Assembly (NCBI GenBank): GCA_963422645.2
Contig: CAXXVO010000018.1
Location: 1 to 64,000, forward strand
Direction: 5' to 3'
Length of the DNA: 64,000 nt
DNA from: Alphaproteobacteria bacterium
Lineage (GTDB): Bacteria; Pseudomonadota; Alphaproteobacteria; UBA828
The notes beneath the pieces were generated by a model. It was not told the origin of the DNA. It did not search any database and saw only the letters and a list, made by a program, of their open reading frames with translations. The position numbers and the translations under genes were made by a program. Positions within the stretch are counted from its first letter, which is position 1. Each line of letters opens with the position of its first letter. Below are positions 1-17,437 of this stretch, one piece after another.

Positions 1-2
1 GT

Positions 3-302
3 GGCCATTCCGTCGGCATTCACACACAAGAGATGGCGCATGCCCGCCGGCTGGCGGAGGAGCTGGATACCGCGCGAGTGCTCGTAAACATGGCACATAC
101 CTTCGGAAACGGCGGCGGGTTCGACAGCGGACTTAACTTCACGCTTTCCATGGGCTGCGGAACCTGGCAGGGCAACAGCATCAGCGAAAACCTGAACTAC
201 CGGCACTTCCTCAACATCACCCATCTCGCGGTGCCGATCCCCGAGGACAGGCCCAGCGAGGATGCGCTCTTCGGCGCCTACTGGGACAAGTACGGCAGGT
301 AG
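3..302 (+). CDS. C-terminal part of an acylating aldehyde dehydrogenase (SauS-like sulfoacetaldehyde dehydrogenase); starts before the window
   Basis: GHSVGIHT...GNGGGFDSGLNFTLSMGCGTWQGNSISENLNYRHFLN is the acylating ALDH C-terminal signature; xsc/tau genes nearby. Confidence 0.75.
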   Translation, partial: GHSVGIHTQEMAHARRLAEELDTARVLVNMAHTFGNGGGFDSGLNFTLSMGCGTWQGNSISENLNYRHFLNITHLAVPIPEDRPSEDALFGAYWDKYGR

Positions 303-340
303 GCGTCGCCGGCGGCGGCCTGCGGATCCGAACGACAGAG

Positions 341-1486
341 ATGAACTTCGAGGAACATGCGGCGAAGCCGCTGCTGCAGGCGGCGGGTATTGCGATCCCG
401 CGCGGGCGCGTGGCCCGAAGCGCCGGCGAGGCGGAGGCCGCCGCGGCGGCACTCGGAGTGCCCGTGATGGTCAAGGCGCAAGTGCCGGCGGGCAAGCGGG
501 GCAAGGCCGGCGGTATCCGAGGGGCGTGCGATCCCAAGGCAGCCCGTGACGCAGCGAGCGCAATCCTCGGCATGGAGATCGCGGGGCACCCCGTTGTCTC
601 GGTCCTGGTCGAAGAGCAGATGCAGGTCGCGGCGGAATACTACGCCGCGGTCTTGAGCGACGCGGCGTCCAAGGGGCCGCTGGTCATGTTTTCGCCCGAG
701 GGCGGCATGGACGTCGAGGAGATTGCGGCGTCGATGCCGGACCGGCTGGGGCAAGCGCCTGTCGACATCCTGCGCGGGTTCGACCTGGACTCGGCGCGCG
801 CAATGCAGGGCGGCCTCGGCGTCGACGGCGACGAGGGGCCTGTCGCCGAGACTCTGGTCGCGCTCTATCGCGCGTATCGCGACAACGACGCGGAGCTGCT
901 CGAGATCAATCCCCTCGCCCGGCTCGCGGATGGGCGGCTGGTCGCGCTCGACTGCAAGTTTGTTCTCGACGATTCCGGGATCCAGCGCAGGCAGGACCTC
1001 GCCGGCAGAGGGAGCCCGGAACCGCTCACGGCGCTAGAGGCGAGGGCACGGGCCCTCGGGTTGCGGTACATCGAGCTCGACGGCGACATCGGCGTGCTCG
1101 CCAACGGCGCCGGGCTTACCATGACCACCATGGACGTGATCGCGCATCACGGCGGGCGGCCGGCGAATTTCCTGGAGATCGGCGGCGACGCATACACCAA
1201 GGCCAGGCCGGCCTTGGAGCTCGTGCTCGACAACCCCAAGATCAAGTGTCTCTTGGTGAACTTCTGCGGTGCCTTCGCGCGCACCGACGTGATGACCGGC
1301 GGGCTGCTCGACGCCTGGGAGGCGCTCAAGCCATCCATTCCGGTGTTCTTCAGCGTGCGCGGCACCGGCTCGGCCGAGGCGCAGGCGATGCTGCGCGAAC
1401 GACTCGGCGTGACCCCCTGCAAGACGATGGACGGGGCAATTGTCGCGGCAATCGCGGCGGCTAGCGACGCCGGAGCTTCCCGATGA
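341..1486 (+). CDS. Succinyl-CoA synthetase-like ADP-forming CoA ligase, beta subunit
   Basis: KAQVPAGKRGKAGGI, EINPL, NGAGLTMTTMD, PANFLEIGG ATP-grasp/SucC motifs. Confidence 0.9.
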   Translation: MNFEEHAAKPLLQAAGIAIPRGRVARSAGEAEAAAAALGVPVMVKAQVPAGKRGKAGGIRGACDPKAARDAASAILGMEIAGHPVVSVLVEEQMQVAAEYYAAVLSDAASKGPLVMFSPEGGMDVEEIAASMPDRLGQAPVDILRGFDLDSARAMQGGLGVDGDEGPVAETLVALYRAYRDNDAELLEINPLARLADGRLVALDCKFVLDDSGIQRRQDLAGRGSPEPLTALEARARALGLRYIELDGDIGVLANGAGLTMTTMDVIAHHGGRPANFLEIGGDAYTKARPALELVLDNPKIKCLLVNFCGAFARTDVMTGGLLDAWEALKPSIPVFFSVRGTGSAEAQAMLRERLGVTPCKTMDGAIVAAIAAASDAGASR

Positions 1487-2352
1487 TCGTGCGGGGCGCA
1501 GACCGCGTGCTCGTTCAGGGAATCACCGGCAAGCAGGGCACGTACTGGACCGAGCGCATGCAAGCATACGGCACGCAGGTCGTCGCGGGCGTGAACCCCA
1601 AGAAGGCGGGCACCGAGCATTGCGGCGTGCCGGTCTACGCGAGCGCCGGCGATGCCATGCGCGAGGTCGGCTTCGACGTGTCGGTGCTGTTCATCCCGCC
1701 GCTCGGGGTGAAGGCGGCGGCGCAGGATGCAATGGAAGCGGGATGCGCGCGCCTCGTCGTCCTTACCGAGCATGTTCCGGTGCAGGACGTGATGGAGTTG
1801 CTGGCGATGGCACGGGCGAATGGCGCCGCCATCGTCGGGCCCAACACCGCAGGGCTGGTGACGCCCGCCGAGTGTTTCGTCGGCTTTATGCCAGCGTTCG
1901 AGTCCGACGTCTTCCGGCCGGGCGGGATTGGTGTGATCTCCCGCAGCGGCAGCCTCGGTACCCTGGTCTGCCTCAACTTGGTGCAGGCGGGCTTCGGGCA
2001 ATCCGCCTTCATCGGTATCGGCGGTGATCCGATCGTCGGAACGACCATCCGCGACGCGCTGGAGGTGCTGGATGCCGACGAGCGCACCGATGCAGTCGTG
2101 GTGGTCGGCGAGATCGGCGGGACGATGGAGGAGGACGCGGCGGAGTACGCGCGAGGCATGGCCAAGCCGGTCGTCGCCTTCATTGCCGGCGCCGCGTCGC
2201 CGCCCGGCAAGAAGATGGGACACGCCGGCGCCATCGTGATGGGCGACAAGGGCACTTACACATCGAAGCGCAAGGCGTTGGAAGCAGCCGGGGTGGCGGT
2301 GCTTGCCACGCCTTCCGAGGTTGGGCGCGCTCTTCACGCGGCGCTGGGCTGA
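1483..2352 (+). CDS. Succinyl-CoA synthetase-like CoA ligase, alpha subunit
   Basis: VQGITGKQG, GPNTAG, SRSGSL, GIGGDP, MGHAGA (phospho-His); ATGA overlap with the beta subunit. Confidence 0.9.
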   Translation: MIVRGADRVLVQGITGKQGTYWTERMQAYGTQVVAGVNPKKAGTEHCGVPVYASAGDAMREVGFDVSVLFIPPLGVKAAAQDAMEAGCARLVVLTEHVPVQDVMELLAMARANGAAIVGPNTAGLVTPAECFVGFMPAFESDVFRPGGIGVISRSGSLGTLVCLNLVQAGFGQSAFIGIGGDPIVGTTIRDALEVLDADERTDAVVVVGEIGGTMEEDAAEYARGMAKPVVAFIAGAASPPGKKMGHAGAIVMGDKGTYTSKRKALEAAGVAVLATPSEVGRALHAALG

Positions 2353-2421
2353 GTGCGTGATTGCGCGGCCAGTCTCGCTGGCTAGCATTCAAGTTAACGA
2401 CAGGCGGAAGGGAAGAGGCAC

Positions 2422-3564
2422 ATGACGGATGCGAACCAGCCCGAGGTGCATCGGGGCCTGAAGGATCTGTGCTTCGATCGATCGCCGACCACGCTCATCG
2501 ACGGCCGCGCCGGCGAGCTCCGCTATCGGGGGTACTCGATCCACGATCTCGCCCAGCACTCGTCGTTCGAGGAGACCGCCTACCTCCTGCTCCACGGTGA
2601 GCTTCCGACGCGGACTCAGTTTGCGGCCTTCGACGGCGCGTTGAAGGAGGCGCGCACGCTGCCCGGCGCGATCCACGACATCATCGGCGCGGTGAAGGAC
2701 TCGCACCCCATGGACGTGCTGCGGACCGCAGTCTCCGCGCTTGCCGCCTACGATCCCGATACGAGCGACAACTCAATGGAGGCGACGCGCCGCAAGAGCA
2801 TCCGGCTCACCTCGCAGGTGCCGATGATCGTGACCGCGCACCACCACATCCGCCAGGGCCGTGGGCCGGTGCCTGCGAGCGCGGACCTCGGCCATGCCGC
2901 GAACTTCCTCTACATGCTCAAGGGGGAAGCGCCGAGCGAGGACGCTTCATCGTTGATGGACACCGACATGGTGCTGCACGCCGAGCACGGCTCCAACGCC
3001 TCCTCGTTCACCGCGCGGGTCGTCGTCAGCACTGATGCGAACCTGCATGCGGGCATCACTGCGGCGGTGGCCGCGCTCTCCGGCCCCGCGCACGGCGGCG
3101 CGGCCGAGAACGTGATGCGCATGGCCAGAGAGATCGACGATCCGGCCAAGGCGGCGGACTACGTCAAGGCGAAGCGGAAGGCGCGCGAGCCGATCATGGG
3201 CTTCGGCCACCGGGTCTACCGGGCCGAGGACCCCCGCGCCCGGCACATGCGCGAAGGGGTCAGGCGGCTCTCGGAAGAGATGGGGGAGCCGCAGTGGCAC
3301 GCGATCCTCGAAGCGCTAGTCGAGGCTATGCGCCCCTACGCCCGGCACGGCGTCAACGTGAACGTCGATTTCTACGCGGGCGTCGTCTACTACCTGCACG
3401 GGATCCCGGAGGACTTGTTCGTGCCGATCTTCGCCATCGGGCGGATCCCGGGGTGGACCGTGCAGGCGATGGAGCAGCTTGAGAACAACATCCTGATCCG
3501 CCCGCGCCTGCTCTACACCGGGCCCGACGCGCGCGAGTACGTTCCGATCGACGAACGGGGATAA
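2422..3564 (+). CDS. Citrate/2-methylcitrate synthase
   Basis: LRYRGY, HAEHGSNAS, GPAHGGA, MGFGHRVY..EDPR, NVDFYAG motifs. Confidence 0.92.
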   Translation: MTDANQPEVHRGLKDLCFDRSPTTLIDGRAGELRYRGYSIHDLAQHSSFEETAYLLLHGELPTRTQFAAFDGALKEARTLPGAIHDIIGAVKDSHPMDVLRTAVSALAAYDPDTSDNSMEATRRKSIRLTSQVPMIVTAHHHIRQGRGPVPASADLGHAANFLYMLKGEAPSEDASSLMDTDMVLHAEHGSNASSFTARVVVSTDANLHAGITAAVAALSGPAHGGAAENVMRMAREIDDPAKAADYVKAKRKAREPIMGFGHRVYRAEDPRARHMREGVRRLSEEMGEPQWHAILEALVEAMRPYARHGVNVNVDFYAGVVYYLHGIPEDLFVPIFAIGRIPGWTVQAMEQLENNILIRPRLLYTGPDAREYVPIDERG

Positions 3565-3568
3565 GCAG

Positions 3569-4567
3569 TCAGGCCATCGCTGCGGTAATCGCCGCCGCGG
3601 CCACGATGTCGTCCACCGTCGCCCCACGCGAGAGATCGCAGAGCGGCCGCGCGAAGCCTTGCAGGAAGGGCCCGATCGCGCGCATTCGGCCTAAGTGCTC
3701 GCAGAGCTTGTAGCCGATGTTGCCGGCGTCGAGGTCCGGGAAGACGAGCACGTTTGCCCTGCCCGCCACATCGCTCGGGCTCTCGGCGTGCTCCGCGCGC
3801 GTCCCGCGCGACATCTTGAGCGCGGCGACCCGCGGCACGAGCGCGGCGTCCGCTTGGAGCTCGCCATCGACCGCGATCTCCGGCGCCCGCGAGCGCACGA
3901 TCTCCACCGCGCGGCGGACCTTCTCGACCCGTTCATGCTTGGCGCTCCCGCGGGTGGAGAACGACAGCATTGCCACCCGCGCAGGAACCCCCAATCGCTC
4001 GGCGCTGGCGGCCGACGCAATGGCGATATCCGCGAGCGCGTCTGCGTCCGGATCGACGTTGACCGCGCAGTCGGCGAAGACCAGCGGATCGCCATCCCCA
4101 CTGGGCACCATGATAAAGAAGCTCGATGGCGTCGCGATGCCGTCCGCGAGACCCACCGACATCAGCCCGGCCTCGATGACCCGCGCCGTGGGCTGGCTGG
4201 CGCCGGCTACGAGCGCATCGGCATCGCCGGCCTTCACCGCCATCGCCGCGTAGAAGAGCGGCTTCGCGAGCAGACGTCGCGCCACCCGCTCGTTCGCCTT
4301 CGGCCGGCCTTGGACGTAGAGCGCCGCATAGGCATCAAGCGCTTCGCTCGTCCGCGGCGATACGCTCTCGATCGCATCGAGCGGCGCGTCGGCTGCTGCG
4401 GCCGACACTTCCAGCGCCTCACGATCGCCGATCAGGAGAGGCCGGGCGATGCCTTCGTCGTGCAGTCGCCGGGCCGCTTGAAGGATCCTCGGGTCGTCGC
4501 CCTCCGGCAGGACGATGGTGCGCCGACGTGCTTTCGCTTGCGCGATGAGGCGCTCGACGAGGTCCAC
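3569..4567 (-). CDS. pta: Phosphate acetyltransferase
   Basis: [43 protein letters not shown]; directly downstream of xsc. Confidence 0.92.
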
Positions 4568-6334
4568 TATTGGGAGTGCATGTCGGCGCCGTCGATGCCG
4601 GCCACGACGTTCGGCTTCTTCATCGCATCCCGGCGGAAGGGCTCGCCCAGCTCCTGGTTCAGGATGACCTCGATGAAGGTCGTGACGCCCTCGGCCTGCG
4701 CTTCACACGACTCACGGAGTGCTGCCGTCAGCTCCTCCATCGTGCTTACCGCGACGCCCTTCAGTCCGCACGCGTCCGCGACCCTGGCGTAGCTGAGGTC
4801 GGGGTTCAGCTCGGTGCCGACAAAGTTGTTGTCGTACCAGAGGATCGAGTTGCGCTTCTCCGCGCCCCACTGGTAGTTGCGGAAGATCACCATGGTGATC
4901 GCCGGCCATCCCTCGCGCCCCATGGATGCCATCTCGCTCATGGAAATGCCGAAGGCGCCATCGCCGGCGAAGCCGACGACCGACACGTCCGGGCAGCCGA
5001 TCTTTGGCGCCGATGATAGCCGGGAAGCCGTACCCGCAGGGCCCGAAGAGGCCCGGCGCGAGGTATTTTCGTCCCTCCTCGAAGGTCGGGTAGGCGTTGC
5101 CGATGGCGCAATTGTTGCCGATGTCGGACGAGATGATGGCGTCCTTCGGCAGGCCGTCCTGAATGGCGCGCCATGCCATCCGCGCCGACATCCGGTCGGG
5201 CTCGCGAGTGCGGGCGTCCACGTTCCAGGTGGTTCCCGGGTCGTCGTCCTCGTGGTCCATGCTGGCGAGCGTCTGGAGCCAGGCGGAGCGGGTCTGATGG
5301 ATCGCCGCCCGGCGCTCCTCACGGCCCGCGTCGCCCGCGGTGTTTGAGAGCTGCTCGCGCAGCTGCTGTGCCACCTTCTTCGCGTCACCGCAGATCCCGA
5401 CCGTGACCTTCTTGGTGAGGCCGATGCGATCCGGGTTCATGTCCACCTGAATGACCGCGGCATCCTTGGGCCAGTAGTCGATGCCGTAGCCCGGCAGAGT
5501 GGAAAAGGGGTTGAGGCGGGTGCCCAGCGCCAGCACCACGTCCGCCTGCGCGATCAGCTCCATCGCGGCCTTGGAGCCGTTGTAGCCGAGGGGGCCGACG
5601 GCAAGCGGGTGCGAGCCGGGGAAGCTGTCGTTGTGCTGGTAGCCGGAGCAGACCGGCGCGTCGAGGCGTTCGGCAAGCGCCCGGCACGCGTCGATTGCCT
5701 CTCCAATCACCACACCGCCGCCCGAGAGGATTACCGGGAAGCGGGCTTCGGAAAGAAGCCGCGCCGCCTCTGCGACCGAGCTCTCGCCACCCGCCGAGCG
5801 CTCGAGGTGCACGATCGGCGGCAGATCGACATCAATCTCCTGGGTCCAGAGATCGCGCGGCACGTTGATCTGTGCGGGTGCGGACTGGCGGAATGCGTTC
5901 TCGATCACCCGATTGAGCACCTCCGCCATGCGGGAGGCGTCGCGCACTTCCTCCTGGTAGCAGACCATCTCCTCGAAGAGCGCCATCTGCGCCACCTCCT
6001 GGAACCCGCCCTGGCCGATGGTCTTGTTGGCCGCCTGGGGAGTCACCAGCAGCAGGGGCGTGTGGTTCCAGTAGGCGGTCTTCACCGGGGTCACGAGATT
6101 GGTGATGCCGGGGCCGTTCTGGCCGATGCACATCGCGATCTTGCCGCTGGCACGGGTGTAGCCGTCGCACATGAAGCCCGCGTTGCTCTCGTGGGCCACG
6201 TCCCAGAAGGTGATGCCGGCCTTCGGGAAGAGGTCCGAGATCGGCATGAAGGCGGAGCCGATGATGCCGAACACGTGCTCGATCCCGTGCCGTTGCAGCA
6301 CCTTCACGAAGGCTTCTTCAGTGGTCATTCTCAT
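4567..6334 (-). CDS. xsc: Sulfoacetaldehyde acetyltransferase (ThDP-dependent) with an apparent 1-nt frameshift near 5003-5005
   Basis: [11 protein letters not shown]...GIIGSAF N-terminus; GDGAFGIS...[10 protein letters not shown]...[12 protein letters not shown]-terminus in a shifted frame; removing one T from TTT at 5003-5005 restores GAKIGCPD. Confidence 0.9.
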
Positions 6335-8542: not shown

Positions 8543-9475
8543 CAATGGCATTCACTTAGCGGTTTTCGACTGTTCACTTAAGGAGTCGTGTTCTTGCGCT
8601 GTCGGTTGCGTGCGTTTCTGTCGTTCAGGTGTTCAGGCGACGGCCCGCTTTGCGCGTGCCCACTTGCCGCGGGGTTTGCGCGACCTGCGTTCGCAGGACC
8701 GGCCGGGGCGCGGGCGCTGACGCGCCTGGTTGATGCAGGAGAGGACATGGCTGAGGGTTTCGGCGACCATCGCCGTATGGCGCAGCAGCAGCGCTTCGAG
8801 GTTGCGCGCGACGGTGGCGAGGCCGTTGCTGAAGTTGGCTTTCATCGCCGGCTTGCCGTCGGCAGGGCGCTCGGCGTCGAGGCTTGCGTTGCTGCGGTTG
8901 GTGAAGAGCCGGGTCATGGCGATGAGGTTGAAGTGGGCGAAGAGCTCCTGGCGGACGCCGCGCTCGGTCTGGCTGTGGAAGGCCTCGACGGCCATGGCCT
9001 GTTTCGAGGTCTTGTAGAGTTCCTCGATTCCCCAGCGCGCGTGATAGAGCTCGGCCAGTTCCGCGACGCTCCAGGCCTTGGGGTCGAGGAGGGTGGTGGC
9101 GAGGATGAAGACCGTGCTGCCGATGCGGTAGCGGACCAGTCGCAGGCGCAGCGGGGTGGCGTCGACGTGCGGCGTCTTGCGGCGCAGCTTTCTCAGGGTG
9201 TCCTTTCCGGGAGCGACGGTGATCGGCGCGTCCGTGCGGCCGTCGGCGATGAAGGCGTCGAGGGCGGCGCCTGCCTTGAAGGCGTCGAGGGCGGCGCCTG
9301 CCTTCTTCTTGATCCGGAACACGGGGTGCAGGCCGCGGGCGACATGGGCGTGCAGCATCTCCCAAGAGTAGTAGCCGCGGTCATAGACCACGATGTCGTT
9401 GGCCGAGAGCGCCTTGAGGTGGGCGAGGGCGGCCCTTCTTTCGTCGCCGTGCGCGACCAGGTCGAAGTCCACCGG
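8543..9475 (-). mobile_element. Truncated IS4-family element (3' half of transposase 8633-9475 plus terminal end)
   Basis: VYDRGY and YHARWGIEELYKTSK (YREK-type) motifs; end sequence CAATGGCATTCACTTA; 5' part lost at the junction with the next transposon. Confidence 0.8.
9251..9304. repeat. 27-bp tandem duplication in the IS4 transposase (KAGAALDAF x2)
   Basis: GAAGGCGTCGAGGGCGGCGCCTGCCTT occurs twice in tandem. Confidence 0.9.
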
Positions 9476-9625
9476 TGAGCGCGCGCGGTCTTTCAGCGGG
9501 GATCGGGGCCTGATCCGCTCGGATTTGTTGAGGTTTTGGGGCGGGTGCCCCTCGGCGAACTTGCAAGAAGTTCGCCGGGGGGCTTTGTCTCGTGGTGACG
9601 GTCACAATCGCCAGAGACGGCCCCA

Positions 9626-10243
9626 ATGTCGCACAACATTTTCCGCCACTCCATGCTTTGCAACGCCCTGGTCTGGGCCTGGCTGCGCGAGGTCGATGAG
9701 GCCGAGGCGGCGCGCTGCCGCGAGGCGGGCTGCCGACACTGCCCCGGCAAGCTGCACAGCGCGACGTATCCGCGCAAGCCGTACGGTCTGGCAGCCGAGT
9801 TGAGGGAAGAGGGCACGCGGCGGTTCAGCTTCTGCTGCGCGGATTGCCGCCTGCGAGCGACCCCACCATCGGTACGATTCTTCGGGCGCCGCTTTTATCT
9901 GGGCGCCCTGTTCGTTCTGTTGAGTGCACTGGTTCTGAGAGGCGGGGTGCGGTTGCAGACGATCAAGCGGAAGTGGGGGGTCTCGGTCGCCACACTGCGC
10001 CGCTGGCGGAAGTGGTGGCTGGAGGCGTTCCCGGCGACGGAGCCCTGGGGAGCGAAGCGTGGCGAACTGGTGATGCCACCCGAGGAGGTGCCGCTGCCCT
10101 TCGTGCTGCGGCAGATGCGGGGCGGACGCTTCGGTGAGCGTCTGTTCCTGAGCCTGATCTGGTTCAAGCCGTGGACGGGCTATTGCGGGCTCGGCGATGG
10201 CTCGGCGCCGCCCGCAGAAAGTGTTCCTGTCACGCCCGGATAG
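9626..10243 (+). CDS. Transposon accessory protein, Cys-rich (putative zinc-binding) with a probable HTH
   Basis: CRHC and CCADC motifs; GVSVATLRRWRKWW HTH-like segment; first ORF inside the left end. Confidence 0.6.
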   Translation: MSHNIFRHSMLCNALVWAWLREVDEAEAARCREAGCRHCPGKLHSATYPRKPYGLAAELREEGTRRFSFCCADCRLRATPPSVRFFGRRFYLGALFVLLSALVLRGGVRLQTIKRKWGVSVATLRRWRKWWLEAFPATEPWGAKRGELVMPPEEVPLPFVLRQMRGGRFGERLFLSLIWFKPWTGYCGLGDGSAPPAESVPVTPG

Positions 10244-10809
10244 GGCGTTCTACATGGGCATCTCTCCGATGCGGCGAGGGAGGGATGCCGGAATGGACAA
10301 GGACGACGCGGGCGCCAGGCGCGAGAAGTGGGCCCGGCTGCGCTTTGCGGTGGTGGGGCCGCTTCTGGCTTCACCGCCGCCTGCAGGCCAGCTGGGGGCC
10401 GAGTTCGAGCGTCTGTCGCAGCGCGACTGGGAGCACCCGTCGGGCAAGGGGCCGGTGCGCTTTGCGGCCTCGACGATCGAGCGCTGGTACTACCGGGCGC
10501 GGGCAGAGGAGCAGGACCCGGTCAAGGCGCTGCGCCGGAAGCCTCGGACCGACGTCGGCCGCGAGCGGTCCATGTCGGCGGGGCTGATCGCGGCGCTGCG
10601 CGAGCAGTACCGGGTCCATCCCTCGTGGGCGGCGCAGCTCCACTACGAGACCCTCAAGGCTCATGTTGCGACCCATCCCGAGCTCGGCCCGATGCCGTCC
10701 TACGCGACGCTGACGCGGGCGATGCGCAATCGCGGCCTGGTGCGCGAGCGCCCCAGGAAGTGGCACGAGGGTGAGGACAAGCCGGCGGTCGAAGCCCGCG
10801 AGGTCCTTA

Positions 10810-12968
10810 CCCAAGTTGGCACTTTTTCCGTTTGTTCGGGGCCGAATTGGCCAGGTTTTTCCGGCTGACACACCAGATATAGCGTTGACGAGAAGGGCAC
10901 GCCCCTACATTTGCGATTGCCGTCTCGAACTCCCTTTGTAGTGCCAGGGAATGGTGGGTTTGCAGGATTTCCCTTGACCCCACCACCAAAGCCGACATAT
11001 CTGAACCCGCCACGACCAAAACGTGCCGGGCGACATGTTCATCAGGGCAACCAAGACCCACACTACCGAAGGCAAGCCGGTCCGCAGCCATCGCCTCGTG
11101 CTCTCGCAGCGCATCGGCGACAAGGTCAGGCAGCGCACGCTTCTCAACCTCGGCACCGACTATCCGGTGCCGAAGGAGAAATGGCGCGAAGTTGCCGGAC
11201 TCGCCGAGGCGCTGCTCAACGGCCGCCCGCCGCTGCTCGAAGCCGCGCCGGACGTGCAGGCCGCAGCCGAGGACATCGTCGCCAAGCTCAGGGCCAGGGG
11301 GTTCCGCCCCGAGGCGATACAGGAAGAGGCGCGCAAGCCCGACATCGCCACCGTCGACCTCGATACCCTGGAGCACGAGAACCCGCGCACGGTCGGCTGC
11401 GAGCGCCTGTGCCTCAAGGCCCTCGACGACCTCGGCTTCGCCGACATCCTCCACGGCCTCGATATCAAGGGCCGCGACGGGCGCATCGCCAGCGCGCTGA
11501 TCGTCGCCAGGATGGTCCATCCCGCCAGCGAGCGTGACACCAGCCGCTGGCTGCGCCGCGACAGCGCGACCGCCGAGCTCCTGGGGCTGGAGGGCGACCG
11601 CAAGGCGCTGCGGCGCAAGACGCTCTACCGCATCGGCGACCTGCTCTGGCGCCACCGGGCCGCCATTCAGCGGGAGCTGTTCAACCGCGAGCGCGCGCTG
11701 CTCGACCTGCCCGAAACGATCGCCTTTTACGATCTCACCAATGTCCACTACCACGGCCACACCCACGGCCAGCTTCCCAGGTTCGGGCGCTCCAAGCAGA
11801 AGCGCGACGACTGTCCGCTGATCACGCTGGCGCTGGCGCTCGACGGCGCAGGCTTCCCGCGCAGTTGCGAGATCCTGCCGGGCAACGTGAGCGAGCCGGG
11901 CACGCTGGAGGACGCGCTGGTCAGGCTCGAGGCGGTGTGCGGCGGCACGGCGCCGAAGCCCACGGTGGTCATGGACGCGGGCATCGCCACCGAGGAGAAC
12001 GTCGCGTGGCTGGGCGAGCAGGGCTACGACTGGATCGCGGTCAGCCGCGGCGCCAGGCCGCCGCTGCCCGAGGGCGGGCCCGAGGCTCTGCTGATCACCA
12101 GCGCGCGGCACGAGGTGCGCGCCTGGCGGCTTGCCAGCGAGGACGGCGAGGCGCGGCTCTACGTCGTCAGCGAGGGCAAGAAGAAGGCCGAGAACGCGAT
12201 CATCGGCCTCAGGCGGAACCGCTTCGAGGCGGCGCTGGAAAGGCTCCATAGCGGCCTGCCGGTCAAGGGCCGCCTCAAGCGCTACGACAGGGTGCTGGAG
12301 AGCATTGGCCGTCTCAAGCAGCGCTTCTCCACCGTCGCCAGACACTACGAGGTCACGGTCGAGAAGGCGAAAACCGGCCCCAACGCCGCCGCCGTGCGCT
12401 TCAAGCGCAGGCCGCAATACGACGAGGCCGACGAGGGCGCCGGCGCCTATGTGCTGCGCACCAGCCACGTCGACTGGGATATCGAGACGATCCTGCGGAC
12501 CTACTGGCGCATCACCGACATCGAGGCCACCTTCCGCAGCCTGAAATCCGAGCTCGGCCTTCGCCCGATCTGGCACCAGCTCGACCGTCGCATCGCGGCC
12601 CACCTGCTGATCGCCGTGCTGGCCTATCACGCCGTGCATCTGATCCGTACCCGACTGGCCGCGCGGGGCATCCACAAGTGCTGGGCATCGATCCGCGAGG
12701 GCATGCGGACCTGGGTGCGGATCACCACGCGACTGCGCCAGACCGACGGCACCTTGATCGTCAACCGCCAGGACACGCGCCCGGCCGCCGAGGTCGCCCA
12801 AATCTCCTCGGCGGCGGGTGTTGACCCCGCCATCCACCGCACGAGGACCCGCCTGACGAGCTGACAGAATCTCACAAAATGTAGTGCCATGTTGGAATCG
12901 GCAGAGAAAAATATTGCGCCATATCAAAGCGATAAACGACAGCAGAACACAAAAAGTGCCAACCTGGG
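10810..12968 (+). mobile_element. IS1634-family insertion sequence
   Basis: Inverted repeats CCCAAGTTGGCACTTTTT / AAAAAGTGCCAACCTGGG; 4-bp CTTA duplication on both sides. Confidence 0.88.
11035..12864 (+). CDS. IS1634-family DDE transposase
   Basis: FYDLTN, GRSKQKRDD, VMDAGI, IEATFRSLKSELGLRPIWH. Confidence 0.88.
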   Translation: MFIRATKTHTTEGKPVRSHRLVLSQRIGDKVRQRTLLNLGTDYPVPKEKWREVAGLAEALLNGRPPLLEAAPDVQAAAEDIVAKLRARGFRPEAIQEEARKPDIATVDLDTLEHENPRTVGCERLCLKALDDLGFADILHGLDIKGRDGRIASALIVARMVHPASERDTSRWLRRDSATAELLGLEGDRKALRRKTLYRIGDLLWRHRAAIQRELFNRERALLDLPETIAFYDLTNVHYHGHTHGQLPRFGRSKQKRDDCPLITLALALDGAGFPRSCEILPGNVSEPGTLEDALVRLEAVCGGTAPKPTVVMDAGIATEENVAWLGEQGYDWIAVSRGARPPLPEGGPEALLITSARHEVRAWRLASEDGEARLYVVSEGKKKAENAIIGLRRNRFEAALERLHSGLPVKGRLKRYDRVLESIGRLKQRFSTVARHYEVTVEKAKTGPNAAAVRFKRRPQYDEADEGAGAYVLRTSHVDWDIETILRTYWRITDIEATFRSLKSELGLRPIWHQLDRRIAAHLLIAVLAYHAVHLIRTRLAARGIHKCWASIREGMRTWVRITTRLRQTDGTLIVNRQDTRPAAEVAQISSAAGVDPAIHRTRTRLTS

Positions 12969-13927
12969 CTTAGCTACGAGGTGTCTCGCAGTCACGCGCT
13001 GTGGCACGGGGACTTCCACCACGGCAAGCGCCGCGTGCTGACGGCGTCGGGCGAATGGCAGACGCCCATCCTGCTCGGCTTCCTCGACGACCACTCCAGG
13101 CTTGGCTGCCACCTGCAGTGGTACCTGGAGGAGACCGCCGAGGTCTTCGTCCACGGGCTCTGTCAGGCCTTCATGAAGAGGGACTTGCCCAGGTCCCTGC
13201 TGACCGACAACGGCGGGCCGATGACGGCGGGCGAGGTCGAGGAGGGCTTGCACCGCCTCGGCATCGTGGGGGCCACGACACTCGCTTACAGCCCCCATCA
13301 AAATGGAAAAATCGAGTCGTTCTGGGGCACGGTCGAGGGCCGCCTGATGGCTCAGCTCGAAGGCGTCGACGCGCTCACCCTGAAGATGCTCAACGACGCC
13401 ACCATAGCCTGGCTGGAGCAGGACTACCATCGGCGGGTGCACCGCGAGCTCGGCATGACGCCGCATGAACGCCTCGCCGGGAGCGTCAAGGCATCGAGGC
13501 CCTGCCCCGCCTCGGACGAGCTCAAGGCGGCCTTCCGCATCGCCAGGAAGCGCACGCTCAGGCGCTCGGACGGCACCGTCTCGGTCGAGGGCATCCGCTA
13601 CCAGGTGCCACAGCCGTGGCGCCACCTGAGGACGCTCTGGGTCCGCTATGCGCGCTGGGACCTCAGCGGCGTCGATCTGGTGGAAGGCCGAAGCGGCGAG
13701 CGGCTGTGCACGCTGTACCCCCTCGACAAGCGCGGCAACGCCGATGGCGTCCGCCGTCCTGCGAGACCCGGCAGCGACCATGGCGGCGCCAGCGCGGGCG
13801 TCGGCGAACTTCCGCCGCTGCTCAAGGGCGTGCTCGACGCCCAGGCCGCAACAGGCCTGCCGCCGGCCTGGGTACCCCATAACAAGACGCCCGGTCCGGG
13901 CGAGGACGACGATCAGGGAGATCCGTC

Positions 13928-14761
13928 ATGAACCGCGAGCTGCTCACCTTCTACGGGCTCAAATGGAACCCCTTCGCCACCGACCTTCCGGTCGACAGCC
14001 TCATGGTGAGCCCCGCCGTCGACAGCTTCTGCCTCAGAATCGAGCATCATCTTGTGCGCCAGGGCGGCTTCGCGTTGATCGCCGGCGAGCCCGGCACCGG
14101 AAAGAGCGTGGCGTTGCGCGTGCTCGCCGACCGCCTCGGCCGCTCGGACGGGCTCAGGGTCTGTGCCATCACCCACCCCTCTTCCAGGCTGTCCGACTTC
14201 TACCGCGAGATCGGCGGGATGTTCGGCGTCGACCTGATGTACAACAACCGCTGGGCCAGCTTCAAAAACCTGCGCGAGCGATGGCTCACCCATGTCGACG
14301 ACACCCGCATGCGGCCCGTGGTGCTCATCGACGAGGCCCAGGAGCTGCTGCCCTCGGTGATCTCCGAGATCCGCCTGCTGGCGTCCACCGACTTCGACTC
14401 GCGCGCCATCCTCTCGGTCGTCTTCGCCGGCGACAGCCGCCTGATCGACAGGCTCCGCCAGCCCGACTTGCAGCCCATCGCCTCGCGCCTGCGCCAGCGC
14501 CTGGTCATGACCCAGGCAGACGCCGGCGACCTCGCGGCCCTGCTCGACCATCTGGTCGAGCAGGCCGGCAATCCGGGCCTCATGAGCGCAGAGCTCAAGG
14601 ACACCCTGGTCACCCACGCCGGCGGCAACCCCAGGGCGCTTACCGTCATGGGCGACATGCTGCTCGCCGCCGGCGCCGAGAAGAACCGCGAGGTTCTCGA
14701 CGAGAAGCTCTTCATGGAGATCCTGGGCGAGCCCGCCAAGCCGAAGAGGGCACGGCGGTGA
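13928..14761 (+). CDS. ExeA-like AAA+ ATPase (transposition helper, MuB/TniB/IstB-like role)
   Basis: YGLKWNPF, Walker A GEPGTGKS, Walker B LIDEAQ, GGNPR; ATGA coupling to the integrase. Confidence 0.85.
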   Translation: MNRELLTFYGLKWNPFATDLPVDSLMVSPAVDSFCLRIEHHLVRQGGFALIAGEPGTGKSVALRVLADRLGRSDGLRVCAITHPSSRLSDFYREIGGMFGVDLMYNNRWASFKNLRERWLTHVDDTRMRPVVLIDEAQELLPSVISEIRLLASTDFDSRAILSVVFAGDSRLIDRLRQPDLQPIASRLRQRLVMTQADAGDLAALLDHLVEQAGNPGLMSAELKDTLVTHAGGNPRALTVMGDMLLAAGAEKNREVLDEKLFMEILGEPAKPKRARR

Positions 14762-15756
14762 AGGGCTTCCCGACACGGGCGCCGATGCAGCTCGAGGATC
14801 GCCCCCGGGCGCAACAGTGGATGGTGGACACGCTGTGGGCCGAGCAGGCCGTGGGCATCGTCGGCGGCGAGCCCAAGTGCGGCAAATCCCTGCTCGCGCT
14901 CGATCTCGCCGTCGCCGTGGCCACCGGCGTCCCATGCCTGCGCCACTACCGCCCCAGCGCAAGCGGCACCGTGCTGCTCTTCGCCGCCGAGGACGCCGGC
15001 CACAGGGTGCGCAAGCGTCTGCAGGGGATCGCCCGCGCCGCCGCCACCCCCTTCGACGAACTCGACATCGCCGTCATCGACGTGCCCACCCTGCGTCTCG
15101 ACCAGCGCATCGACCGTCAGCGCCTGCAGGAGACCGTGGAGCGCATCGAACCGCGCCTCCTGATCCTCGATCCCCTGGTCCGCCTGCACAGCGTCGACGA
15201 GAACGCCGTCGCAGAGATCGCCCCCATCCTCGGCTTCCTGCGCGAACTGCAGCGCCGCTTCGAAACCGCCGTCCTCCTCGTCCACCACGCCCGCAAGAGC
15301 GGCGGCACCCGGCCGGGGCAGGCCCTGCGCGGGAGCAGCGAGCTGCACGCTTGGGGTGACTCAAATCTGTACCTGCGCCGGCGCGACAAGAAGATCGTCA
15401 TGACGGTCGAGCAGCGCGACGCCCGGGGCCTCAACGACATCGAGCTGGAACTCGTCGACGGCGGACATGGGCCGGCCTTCCGTCTGCACCAGGACGCGGC
15501 AGATGAAGACAGGCACGAGCCCGCCACCGTCGAGCAGCGCGTCTTCAAGGCGATCGAGCAGGCCGAAAAGCCGCTCTCGAAAGCCCAGATCCGCTCACGC
15601 GCCGCTGCCCGCAACGCCACCGTCGTTGCCGCCATCGAGAGCCTCACCAGGGAGGGGCGCATCGAACGGGCGCCCAGGGGTGGCTATCGCCTCGCAGCCG
15701 CCGAGGCGCACCGGGAGCCGCAATCCCCTGCCGCCATCAACGGAAGTGCGGGATGA
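14758..15756 (+). CDS. RepA/AAA_25-type RecA-like helicase with C-terminal winged helix
   Basis: GEPKCGKS, AAED, LILDPL, LVHHARK, RGSS motifs; GTGA coupling to the ATPase. Confidence 0.8.
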   Translation: MKGFPTRAPMQLEDRPRAQQWMVDTLWAEQAVGIVGGEPKCGKSLLALDLAVAVATGVPCLRHYRPSASGTVLLFAAEDAGHRVRKRLQGIARAAATPFDELDIAVIDVPTLRLDQRIDRQRLQETVERIEPRLLILDPLVRLHSVDENAVAEIAPILGFLRELQRRFETAVLLVHHARKSGGTRPGQALRGSSELHAWGDSNLYLRRRDKKIVMTVEQRDARGLNDIELELVDGGHGPAFRLHQDAADEDRHEPATVEQRVFKAIEQAEKPLSKAQIRSRAAARNATVVAAIESLTREGRIERAPRGGYRLAAAEAHREPQSPAAINGSAG

Positions 15757-15757
15757 G

Positions 15758-15816
15758 GCGTTCCCGTTCCCGTTCCCGGAACTCTTAAGCGTTGAAGGGT
15801 ACAGGAACGGGAACGC
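15758..15816. repeat. Perfect 13-bp inverted repeat with (GTTCCC)x3; candidate replication origin
   Basis: GCGTTCCCGTTCC (15758-15770) and GGAACGGGAACGC (15804-15816) between the helicase and primase genes. Confidence 0.6.
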
Positions 15817-15858
15817 CGTCAGCCTCCCTTCCAAGCAGACCTTCGCCGGGACCCGGCA

Positions 15859-16728
15859 ATGAGCGGCGGCGATCCCCTGGCCACCTGCCGCAACATCCCC
15901 CTCGACCGGGTCGCCGCCGCCCTCGGCTACCGCAGAGACCCGACCGACCGGGCGCGCTTCAAGCGCGGGGGCTCGGTCATCAGCATCAACGGCGAGAAGT
16001 TCTTCGATCACCTGCGCGGCACGGGAGGGGGTGGCGCCATCGACCTCGTCATCCATGCGACGGGATGCCGCTTCCCGGAAGCCCTCCGCTTCCTCGGAAG
16101 CCATGAGGGGCGGAGGGAGATCACCACCATCCCAGCCGCCCCGCGACGCCTGCGGCTGCCAAGGCCCAGTCCCCGCGCCTGGCCCAGGGTCCGGGACGCC
16201 CTCATCCGCCAACGCGCTATCGGCACCGACGTGCTCGAAGCCTGCCACGGCCGAGGCCTCCTCTACGCCGATGACAGGATCAACGCCGTCTTCATCTGCC
16301 GAAACGCCAGCGGGCACACGACCGGCGCCGAGATCCTCGGCACCGCGCCGCAGCCCGGAACAAAACGCTTCAGGGGCATGGCCCCGGGATCGCGCAAGGC
16401 GCGTGGCGGCTTCTGGCTCCACTGCGACCGAAACCAGCCCGCCCTCGTCATCCTCACCGAGAGCGCCGTCGACGCCATCTCTGCACGAAGCCTGCGCGTC
16501 GAGGGGACGCGCGAGAACGGCGCCGTCGTCGCCTCAACCGCCGGCATCGCCAGCTCGGTCCCGCCCTGGATCAAGGAGTGGAAGCCACGTCGCATCGTCT
16601 GTGCCTACGACGCAGACAGCGCCGGCGACACTGCCGCCGAGCATCTCGTGCTCAACGATCCAAGGGTGAAAAGGTTGCGCCCACGACACGCCAAGGACTG
16701 GAACGAGATGCTCCTGCGGTCTCGATGA
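15859..16728 (+). CDS. Toprim-domain primase-like protein (DUF3991/Toprim type)
   Basis: GGGAIDLV N-terminal motif, LTESAVDAIS, AYDADSAG (DxD), KDWNE. Confidence 0.8.
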   Translation: MSGGDPLATCRNIPLDRVAAALGYRRDPTDRARFKRGGSVISINGEKFFDHLRGTGGGGAIDLVIHATGCRFPEALRFLGSHEGRREITTIPAAPRRLRLPRPSPRAWPRVRDALIRQRAIGTDVLEACHGRGLLYADDRINAVFICRNASGHTTGAEILGTAPQPGTKRFRGMAPGSRKARGGFWLHCDRNQPALVILTESAVDAISARSLRVEGTRENGAVVASTAGIASSVPPWIKEWKPRRIVCAYDADSAGDTAAEHLVLNDPRVKRLRPRHAKDWNEMLLRSR

Positions 16729-16828
16729 AAGCCAGGCCACTCACCGCTCTCGCAGATCAACCAAGCGCCGCATCACGAACATCAAATAATCCGAAAACCG
16801 CACCATCAAATGCTGGGCGCACGCTCAG

Positions 16829-17020
16829 TGGCAGGCCGGATCGTCGAACACGGCACAGGCGCTCTTCGCTGCTACGACCAACGGCTTGGGCTTGGGCGCC
16901 GGGCTCCTGATCGCGGGTCTGCTCTATGCCGCCTGGGGCGCCAATGCCTACTGGGTATGCGCCGCAGTCTCCGGCTTGGGCCTCATCGCGGTGCTGGCCA
17001 TGCGGACCGGCGCCCGATAG
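16829..17020 (+). pseudogene. C-terminal remnant of an MFS transporter, truncated by the transposon end
   Basis: Manual translation WQAGSSNTAQALFAATTNGLGLGAGLLIAGLLYAAWGANAYWVCAAVSGLGLIAVLAMRTGAR*, resembling the last two MFS helices. Confidence 0.6.
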
Positions 17021-17033
17021 GCACCGGATCGAA

Positions 17034-17219
17034 TCAGTGGTCGGCGCTGCCGGCCGCGCCCTCCTTCAGGACGAAGCGGCGATCGCAGTAGGGGCAGTCG
17101 ATGGCCCCCTTTGTTTCCAAGTTGAGGAACACGCGCGGATGGCCGAGCGCGCCGCCACCGCCGTTGCACGCGACGACCGTATCGTCGACCTCGATGATCT
17201 CGGGCGGGTCGATGGTCAA
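17034..17219 (-). CDS. zf-CHCC zinc-finger protein (complex I NDUFS6-like)
   Basis: VACNGGGGALGHPRVFLNL...CPYC; TTG start assumed. Confidence 0.85.
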   Translation of the reverse strand: MTIDPPEIIEVDDTVVACNGGGGALGHPRVFLNLETKGAIDCPYCDRRFVLKEGAAGSADH

Positions 17220-17437
17220 GGGACGTTCCTCATTGTCTCTGCATGGTCTGCGCCAGCATTTGACCCCGGCGGCGAGGCGATGATACCCATTGCCCGCCGC
17301 CATTCAACCGGACGCCGCCGCCTGCGGCGCCACTATCCGCACCGTTGCCATCCACACCGCAGCCTTCCGCGCCGTGGAGAGCCGAGCCTGAAGGGCATCG
17401 TCCTGCACCAGACACACGCCCACGACAGGCCCGCGCC

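Follow-up and report, generated by a model that had tools for sequence, protein, structure and literature searches.

To our knowledge, bacterial DDE transposons depend on their host for any DNA synthesis that their movement needs, and the building of a fork on a transposition intermediate, with the host functions this requires, is known in detail only for phage Mu. The question raised by the locus described here is why a transposon should carry a helicase and a primase between its own ends. The element lies at positions 9476–16827 of the 64,000-nucleotide stretch that was analysed (hereafter the window), i.e. positions 1 to 64,000 of contig CAXXVO010000018.1 in an assembly (GCA_963422645.2) of an alphaproteobacterium of the UBA828 lineage. 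It is a real, recently active transposon. Its first three genes encode a core assignable by homology to the Tn6049 family; behind these lie genes for a putative RepA-like helicase and a protein predicted from its fold to be a DnaG-type primase, with an inverted repeat array between the two. The best reading of this combination, in which we place somewhat more than even confidence, is self-primed replication linked to transposition. A replication role as such is better founded, given the RepA-like helicase, the DnaG-fold Toprim protein and the iteron-like array beside the helicase gene.

The element, its copies and its transposition genes

The terminal TGAGCG begins at 9476 and the terminal CGCTCA finishes at 16827, alignments to copies in the same genome (5.9 Mb on 23 contigs; marker-based completeness 99.6%, contamination 8.5%) break off exactly at these two positions, and left and right boundaries are identical in 12 full-length copies. 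The initial annotation, made from the window alone, had described a TG...CA transposon of about 5.2 kb with five co-oriented genes, and this description holds in all its parts. The shared boundaries and many copies confirm a discrete element, which measures 5,189 bp when a secondarily inserted insertion sequence (IS) is removed, while uninterrupted copies measure 5,189–5,192 bp; open reading frame (ORF) calls and Pfam domains agree on the five genes (Table 1); and the ATGA (13928–13931) and GTGA (14758–14761) gene overlaps are real. The end motifs are likewise as described, with CATCAAAT at 16780 and 16804 and a related ATTTGTTG at 9523. The former has two matches in the 64-kb window, both in the right end, against a chance expectation of 0.71 per window, and the terminal consensus TGAGCGTGnnCACGnnnnnTGATG recurs in relatives across phyla.

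Matches to the left part of the element number 27 and those to the right part 38 (BLAST), distributed over 15 of the 23 contigs, with identities of 98.98–100% except for one short right-end fragment at 89%. The other copies for which the initial annotation had proposed to look thus comprise, together with that in the window, eight uninterrupted and four IS-interrupted full-length copies (the latter including the window's own), besides many fragments. All five ORFs are open in six of the eight uninterrupted copies, and one has a frameshift in the transposase gene. A 4–5 bp target duplication flanks 5 of the 12 full-length copies. At C6:432375 the left end of one copy joins an inverted copy at an internal point, and at C3:164349/164350 a right end likewise runs into the interior of the next copy; since copies sit inside other copies, this suggests that there is no strong target immunity. 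Among 24 copies, many are preceded on the left by CGG, CCGG or GG, which may be a target preference or the GC-rich background. Parts of the element are present in the 20 sequencing runs listed, none of which is recorded as RNA.

Neither structural, conjugation nor cargo genes were seen among the ORFs of the element, in agreement with the initial annotation. The latter had also considered that the element may act as a satellite, an idea that fared badly, as no packaging or phage genes were found among the element proteins. Indeed, it is very improbable that the element is a phage satellite, or a defence or anti-defence island, that integrates through its transposase. Helicase–primase pairs are common in satellites and integrative elements, and the Toprim part gives a weak PADLOC match to a DnaG-like domain model. 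Capsid, regulator-switch and known defence genes are, however, lacking among the element's genes, PADLOC otherwise returned only generic P-loop matches, a viral contig collection yielded only three distant relatives of the helicase, and an abundance of dozens of copies per genome, together with target duplications, is what a transposon would show. Membership of a defence system was rejected, the PADLOC defence models having given none.

The product of gene 1 has four cysteines (C36, C39, C71 and C74) that are invariant in 32 sequences, and a homologue precedes the transposase gene at every locus where the contig extends far enough. Distant relatives (29% transposase identity) keep the gene trio, the first gene there being annotated DUF6431, and a language-model search places the gene 1 protein beside DUF6431 clusters, which is a lead only. 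By this sequence evidence gene 1 is classed as encoding a DUF6431-like accessory DNA-binding protein of the transposition module. Its structural model has a predicted local distance difference test score (pLDDT) of 78, the best match in a PDB fold search has an E value of 0.3, i.e. is not significant, and there is no significant Pfam match to TniQ; because of the lack of a significant PDB fold match, a relationship to TniQ is one of analogy only.

The uninterrupted transposase, as encoded by the intact copy L002 at C19:156077–161265 (positions 986–2461 of that locus), has 491 amino acids. It falls below the NCBIfam cut-offs for IS481, IS3 and IS21, the nearest model being IS481 (NF033577), and matches the PHROG 310 transposase at 6e-35, so that from sequence it appears nearest to IS481/IS3-type enzymes and Mu-like phage transposases. 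Membership of the IS481 family was rejected, as the score is 117 bits against a cut-off of 224 and the unit has five genes, not one. The ATPase encoded by gene 3, which is probably a MuB/TniB-type helper and the counterpart of the Tn6049 'gspA' product, accompanies the transposase in 80 of 80 related loci. These loci came from a pattern scan of one genome per species, which with two plasmid loci gave 82; protein clusters related to the transposase number more than 7,000. The 80 loci span Alpha-, Beta-, Gamma- and Deltaproteobacteria, Acidobacteriota, Gemmatimonadota, Planctomycetota, Verrucomicrobiota, Actinomycetota, Nitrospinota, Myxococcota and several candidate phyla, more than 10 phyla in all.

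The initial annotation did not recognise the architecture as that of any described family, and in this respect it has to be revised, since the core of Cys-rich/HTH (helix-turn-helix) protein, transposase and ATPase is that of Tn6049 of Cupriavidus metallidurans. The transposase is 49.8% identical, over residues 10–467 of 491, to copies on pMOL30 and pMOL28 (C. metallidurans CH34) and pHS87a (Pseudomonas aeruginosa), which are the best annotated plasmid matches and cover ~93% of its length. The order on pMOL30 is a 181-amino-acid 'transposase' (the homologue of the Cys-rich protein), a 479-amino-acid transposase, a 277-amino-acid AAA ATPase and a 71-amino-acid ORF, and homologues of gene 1 and of the ATPase were detected in both plasmid loci (L101 and L102). 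In a transposase tree built from the query, 67 distinct loci and two outgroups (70 rows in all, after removal of those that had fewer than 400 matched residues, contained in-frame stops or duplicated another row) the element groups with L101, apart from the 29%-identical outgroups. The assignment of the three-gene core to the Tn6049 family is made on these grounds.

According to the accessible text of the respective reports, Tn6049 is 3.5 kb long and present in 12 copies in CH34, all with the ATPase gene 'gspA' (PMC2864759), shows on pHS87a imperfect inverted repeats of 12 bp and a direct repeat of 4 bp (PMC4739549), and has a transposition module that "could not be categorized" (PMC6210171). 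The element resembles it in its homologous transposase (~50%), the same order of the three core genes, the many copies per genome, the short imperfect inverted ends and the length of the duplication (4 bp, as against 4–5 bp here). By contrast, Tn6049 has neither AAA_25 helicase nor repeat array nor primase, only the 71-amino-acid ORF, without a Pfam match, after its ATPase gene, and its published terminal repeat begins TGTGC rather than TGAGCG. Since it has 5,189 bp, with two extra genes and a repeat array inside its ends, the element is a variant and not Tn6049 itself. Forms with helicase, array or primase were not found described in the open-access full texts and preprints searched, and the open-access literature on DUF3991 and DUF6431 has, by its titles and the starts of its abstracts, no transposon topic.

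The helicase, the repeat array and the primase

The sole sequence match of the gene 4 product in the PDB is the RepA helicase of plasmid RSF1010 (1g8y; E 8e-9 with the single protein, 1.4e-16 with a profile). The residues of its P-loop and other motifs do not vary among 27 sequences, and its last ~80 residues form a winged-HTH-like segment; the protein is accordingly predicted to be a RepA-like hexameric helicase. A tree of the AAA_25 proteins (34 rows) and that of the transposases show the same main clades. On the latter the '4 genes' state requires 8–11 changes, so the helicase has been gained or lost repeatedly; where present, it has, to judge from the trees, diverged together with the transposase, as a long-term component and not a chance neighbour. 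Among the copies of the source genome two variants of the helicase gene coexist (L002:3634–3660), differing by six clustered base changes (four amino acids), and one of them matches the form in runs labelled as another organism. Prediction of a complex from the helicase and primase alignments gave a score of 0.01 and 'no answer', hence no evidence either way.

Directly 3' of the helicase stop codon lies an array of hexamers in two inverted triplets, with DNA hairpin z-scores of -4.0 and -5.2, which is a candidate helicase-binding site or origin. Relatives have the same arrangement after the helicase gene, with a clade-specific unit (GTTCCC, GTTACC, GTTTCC, GGTTCCC or CTTCCG). Because exact tandem-repeat detection was too strict for hexamers, it was replaced by a palindrome scan, itself strict (periodic palindromes with 16-nt arms and at most two mismatches), and by a repeat regular expression. 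By the former, 24 of the 41 distinct elements with 4 or 5 genes have a periodic palindrome just past the helicase gene; of 27 3-gene elements, only L071 and L087 have palindromes after the ATPase gene, three in all and none of them periodic. The regular expression matched 21 of 37 helicase-bearing elements with at least 110 bp available past the gene, as against 0 of 22 3-gene elements, and had no other match in 240,448 bp of element sequence. Arrays are visible by eye in the remaining 16 elements, some degenerate, with one clear left unit in L046.

The letters change, yet the 6–7 bp periodicity and the inverted symmetry persist, which exceeds the complementarity that a plain hairpin needs and points to the binding of each unit by a protein. 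Within the closest clade, the residue that follows a conserved arginine of the winged HTH tracks the third base of the repeat unit: N occurs with GGGAAC (five elements), P or T with GGTAAC (four) and A with GGAAAC (one). This covariation is suggestive. At viral origins, initiator helicases assemble on inverted short repeats, and two inverted triplets of sites beside the gene of a putative ring helicase with its own DNA-binding domain recall such origins.

Gene 5 encodes a Toprim protein, the AlphaFold2 model of which, made from 32 aligned homologues, has a pLDDT of 88. In a Foldseek search its best PDB match is Aquifex DnaG, over the zinc-binding and polymerase domains (2e-7), and further top matches are a T7 gp4 primase fragment, Twinkle, T4 gp61 and Escherichia coli DnaG. 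Residues E201 and D251 are invariant, and D253 nearly so. The CHC2 Pfam model gives no match to gene 5 and the CHC2 cysteines are absent; the N-terminal domain has a weak likeness to a zinc-binding domain (1d0q, E 0.03). Gene 5 is therefore classed, from the modelled fold, as a predicted DnaG-type primase. At an identity of 70% or more it is matched by over 70 protein clusters, several of which lie on contigs of ~5.2 kb.

Different primases appear in the same place. L049, an element of another clade (5,099 bp), has a 311-amino-acid primase with a CHC2 zinc ribbon and a Toprim_2 domain (4094–5029) after its helicase gene and array, which shares just a short Toprim stretch with gene 5. At L095:5904–6218 a 104-amino-acid ORF with a CHC2 zinc ribbon only fills the slot after the helicase gene and array.

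The evidence on the array and the Toprim protein bears on the possibility, which we consider unlikely, that the AAA_25 protein is a regulatory DNA-binding ATPase, such as an autorepressor acting at the array, or a target-choice factor, with the Toprim protein being a nuclease or accessory protein. The array is intergenic, where an operator or attenuator could sit. Transposons of the Mu, Tn7 and Tn5053 kinds use several ATPases and target selectors. Toprim domains occur in nucleases too, e.g. OLD, as stated in the accessible text of PMC8649781. However, the best sequence match of the AAA_25 protein is a true replicative helicase, and the whole fold of the Toprim protein, its N-terminal domains included, matches primases, with OLD, RecR and JetD-type Toprim proteins matching only at E values of 0.01 or above. 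The CHC2 zinc ribbon of the L049 primase is typical of DnaG, and six units in two inverted triplets would fit ring or double-ring assembly better than a simple operator.

When metagenomes were scanned with the Toprim alignment, 80 loci were obtained, of which just three have a Tn6049-like context. Of the 57 loci that extend 800 bp or more upstream, 39 have the DUF3991-Toprim gene directly after IstB_IS21, and of the 36 that extend 3,400 bp or more, 27 show the order small ORF, ParB/KorB-like HTH protein, IstA-like transposase, IstB and Toprim protein. An identical IS21-type unit of 5,094 bp is present on three contigs (L166:471–5564, L167:655–5748 and L172:419–5512) with different flanks, imperfect inverted ends and, in one contig, an exact 8-bp duplication; L129, L187 and ~27 further metagenome loci are likewise of this primase-bearing kind (~5.1 kb). 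By sequence, an IS21-type transposon carrying the window-type primase family is thus a second kind of transposon that appears to have recruited a primase. No description of primase-bearing IS21-type elements was found in open-access texts and preprints, where IstB and Toprim never occurred together.

On plasmids, the closest relatives of gene 5 fall under MobV relaxase annotations, including on plasmids of 2.9 kb. DUF3991-Toprim sequences lie inside MobV-annotated genes on two 2.9-kb Paracoccus aestuarii plasmids (H26 and H27) and on cyanobacterial plasmids, and these may encode a MobV-Toprim relaxase-primase fusion, perhaps as the only large gene of such plasmids.

Bounded forms and the possible role of the helicase and primase

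An AAA_25 gene follows the ATPase gene in 54 of the 82 loci, and 5 of the 82 also carry a window-type Toprim gene. Where copies inside one assembly could be compared, the ends of each form were fixed by that comparison. One 4-gene form of 4,384 bp is present in eight copies (four with a 5-bp duplication, three with a 4-bp duplication and one without) and another of 4,354 bp in four copies, all four with a 5-bp duplication; 4–5 bp duplications are thus found in 11 of 12 copies of these two related elements, both of which stop ~330 bp past the helicase gene. A 5-gene form of 5,160 bp, of which two copies were compared, has a 5-bp duplication and stops past the Toprim gene. In another assembly, three copies of a 3-gene form measure 3,267 bp. 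As a generic search for inverted ends was too noisy in GC-rich flanks, a scan with the TGAGCGTGnnCACGnnnnnTGATG consensus was used instead, which placed the right end 80–470 bp past the last recognised gene in most loci; the sizes so obtained fall into classes of ~3.25–3.5, 4.2–4.5 and 5.1–5.2 kb. Among 30 relatives of the source genome, congener G008 has at least nine full-length copies of an 87%-identical 5-gene form; G005 (at least nine copies) and G009 (likewise at least nine, eight of them spanning positions 1–4062) have forms that align only up to the helicase gene.

The search for five-gene synteny with conserved ends and target duplications, as proposed in the initial annotation, therefore returned bounded 5-gene units in other assemblies, with conserved TGAGCG ends and, in the 5,160-bp form, a 5-bp duplication, and the placing of the helicase and Toprim genes inside the ends holds both in the source genome and in independent multi-copy relatives. 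The initial annotation had counted homologues that end before the helicase gene as evidence against its proposal. Such homologues do exist, as the 3-gene forms (3.25–3.5 kb), although the helicase- and primase-bearing forms are bounded units themselves. Since many relatives end before the helicase gene, the helicase and primase are dispensable for transposition family-wide.

It may be asked, then, whether helicase, array and primase are the remnant of a captured plasmid or integrative-element replicon, carried as passive cargo with no role in mobility. The 3-gene relatives move without the helicase and primase genes, the helicase has a patchy distribution over the transposase tree (the 8–11 changes given above), the nearest plasmid relatives of the Toprim protein are those under MobV annotations on small plasmids, and the helicase resembles that of RSF1010. 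This explanation is nonetheless improbable. The helicase tree tracks the transposase tree; the module is constant in place and orientation, is translationally coupled to the ATPase gene in the closest clade and is accompanied by no other cargo; and its motif residues are intact across phyla. Unrelated DnaG-type primases are found at the same site, the same primase family is also found in an IS21-type element, and a plasmid search with the helicase gave only two weak matches.

In the mechanism that we favour, i.e. self-primed replication linked to transposition, the core trio of Zn-ribbon/HTH protein, DDE transposase and AAA_22 ATPase would transpose the element through its TGAGCG ends, each with two subterminal repeats, insertion yielding the 4–5 bp target duplications. 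Helicase, array and primase would together constitute an element-borne origin plus primosome: the helicase would recognise the repeats via its winged HTH and load itself there, the primase would lay primers, and only a polymerase would be required of the host. The module could drive the synthesis that copies a strand-bridged intermediate out to a circle, or the copying of a strand-transfer intermediate, and might additionally amplify an excised circle; in each case the host system for helicase loading and priming would not be needed. In the accessible text of a preprint (bioRxiv 10.1101/2023.06.07.543989), IS3- and IS21-type elements form circles via copy-out primed from a 3'OH, and the IEE primase-helicase is proposed to act at the copy-out step. 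A built-in helicase and primase would free that step from host helicase loading.

Several observations weigh against this proposal. The census has 29 '4-gene' loci as against five with a window-type Toprim gene, and, as most helicase-bearing relatives thus lack the primase, priming is not essential to the role of the helicase. The 3-gene relatives spread well without the module, as with Tn6049 and the 3,267-bp form, and because they multiply without it the module is an optional add-on. Neither a polymerase gene nor a separate initiator gene is present among the element ORFs, and the Toprim gene has a stop codon in one of the eight uninterrupted copies. The array could alternatively be an operator or a transcript structure, and the covariation between winged-HTH residue and repeat unit comes from 10 related elements of shared ancestry and carries no statistical test. 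A matching target duplication is lacking in 7 of the 12 full-length copies; rearrangement between copies explains the missing duplications as well as replicative transposition does, and a comparison of orphan flanks between copies for inversions or deletions was uninformative, because 4–5-mers match by chance too often. No end-to-end joint was found in the contigs of three runs, although contigs cannot prove its absence, and the assembly has no head-to-tail tandem of the element.

A wider interpretation is that elements of this type are widespread transposon-replicon hybrids, with their own origin and initiator helicase and sometimes a primase, which copy themselves around excision with only the polymerase taken from the host; this is plausible, but we hold it somewhat less probable than an even chance. 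If true, such hybrids would be a bacterial counterpart of the self-synthesizing transposons, and the independent recruitment of a primase by IS21-type elements would make self-priming a general, so far unnoticed strategy of circle-forming transposons. Helicase, array and primase could also explain the spread of the family over more than 10 phyla and its bursts to dozens of copies per genome. An element with a helicase, a matching array and sometimes a primase would make the fork-building step directly testable in a unit of 5 kb, for which the natural 3-, 4- and 5-gene forms are a ready-made deletion series.

Comparison with known systems and features of the window copy

The element shares with the Mu, Tn5053, Tn552, Tn7 and IS21-type elements TG...CA ends with several subterminal repeats, 4–5 bp duplications and an rve-type transposase gene followed by that of a helper ATPase, which are shared working features and not proof of membership. 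No resolvase or TnsA ORF is present in it. Elements of these kinds rely on host replication or on cut-and-paste, and we know of none that carries a helicase, an iteron array and a primase.

In its replication genes the element resembles the IncQ plasmid RSF1010, which likewise has its own RepA-type helicase, its own primase and short direct repeats near these genes, the logic being independence from host helicase loading and priming. By contrast, the primase here is predicted from its fold to be of the DnaG/Toprim type, that of RSF1010 being of the RepB' kind; there is no RepC-like initiator ORF, the helicase itself having a winged HTH; the repeats are hexamers in two inverted triplets; and the carrier is a chromosomal transposon, not a plasmid. 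With casposons, Polintons and the SCCmec helicase-primase operon the element has in common that an integrating element carries part of its own replication machinery. Those systems, however, rely on Cas1, a serine recombinase or a eukaryotic integrase, and a polymerase is encoded by most of them, whereas this element has a bacterial DDE transposase with an AAA+ helper, and no match to a polymerase family was obtained for any of its five proteins. As described in the accessible part of the preprint cited above, IEE likewise ties a primase and a helicase functionally to the replication step of IS3/IS21-type transposition; it is, however, a separate genomic gene, encoding an AEP-type primase fused to a helicase, and promotes excision, whereas here the transposon itself contains the genes, which are of DnaG and RepA type. 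What is new here is the RepA-like helicase co-diverged with its transposase, the 3+3 inverted array absent from 3-gene forms, the DnaG-fold Toprim protein and, outside this element, the second DnaG-type primase (L049) and the IS21-type transposon with the window-type primase family.

Table 1. Features of the element copy in the window (window positions)
Feature	Position	Strand	Details
Left end	9476..9545	+	terminal TGAGCGCGCGCGG; subterminal repeats including ATTTGTTG at 9523
Terminator-like hairpin	9547..9583	+	16 pairs and T-rich tail; between left end and gene 1; corresponds to L002 240–276
Gene 1, Zn-ribbon + HTH protein	9626..10243	+	205 amino acids; weak HTH_23 match
Gene 2, 5' part, HTH region of DDE transposase	10293..10809	+	interrupted by IS
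IS1634-type IS, secondary insertion	10810..12968	+	2,159 bp; 613-amino-acid DDE_Tnp_1 ORF; foreign to the element
Gene 2, 3' part, rve catalytic core and C-terminal region	12969..13931	+	rve, rve_3 (Pfam)
Gene 3, AAA_22 ATPase	13928..14761	+	277 amino acids; AAA_22 6e-19; PHROG 296 'DNA transposition protein' 6e-19
Gene 4, AAA_25 protein	14758..15756	+	332 amino acids; GTG start; AAA_25 3e-36; C-terminal winged HTH
Inverted hexamer array	15757..15817		CGTTCC x3, 21-nt spacer, GGAACG x2 and one degenerate unit
Gene 5, DUF3991 + Toprim_2 protein	15859..16728	+	289 amino acids; Pfam
Right end	16760..16827	+	two CATCAAAT repeats 24 bp apart, then terminal ...GCGCACGCTCA

The copy in the window is inactivated through insertion of the IS1634-type IS into its transposase gene. 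This IS has 23-nt inverted repeats, is flanked by a 4-bp CTTA target duplication and is present in 14 copies in the genome. The hairpin between the left end and gene 1 may block read-in transcription; the scan for such terminator-like hairpins found three sites against 2.3 expected, and is weak taken alone. A search of positions 9000–17300 against Rfam matched no family, and a promoter scan found none.

To the left of the element, a 5'-truncated IS4-type transposase gene (DDE_Tnp_1) occupies 8633–9472 on the minus strand, and the 76 bp that precede the element (9400–9475) are repeated identically at at least 13 other sites in the genome; given this repetition, the window copy lies in or beside another multi-copy IS, the other half of which is missing. 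To the right, positions 16828–17020 (plus strand) encode the hydrophobic C-terminal end of a longer ORF without its 5' part, transporter-like by eye. As the flanks are a truncated IS4-type gene on one side and a 3' ORF fragment on the other, they are rearranged and not matching halves. Right of the intact copy L002, the segment L002:5336–6857 (C19:161244–162765), which includes a 328-amino-acid ORF on the minus strand, has a still higher contig depth in three runs and, because of this depth, is taken to be another repeat.

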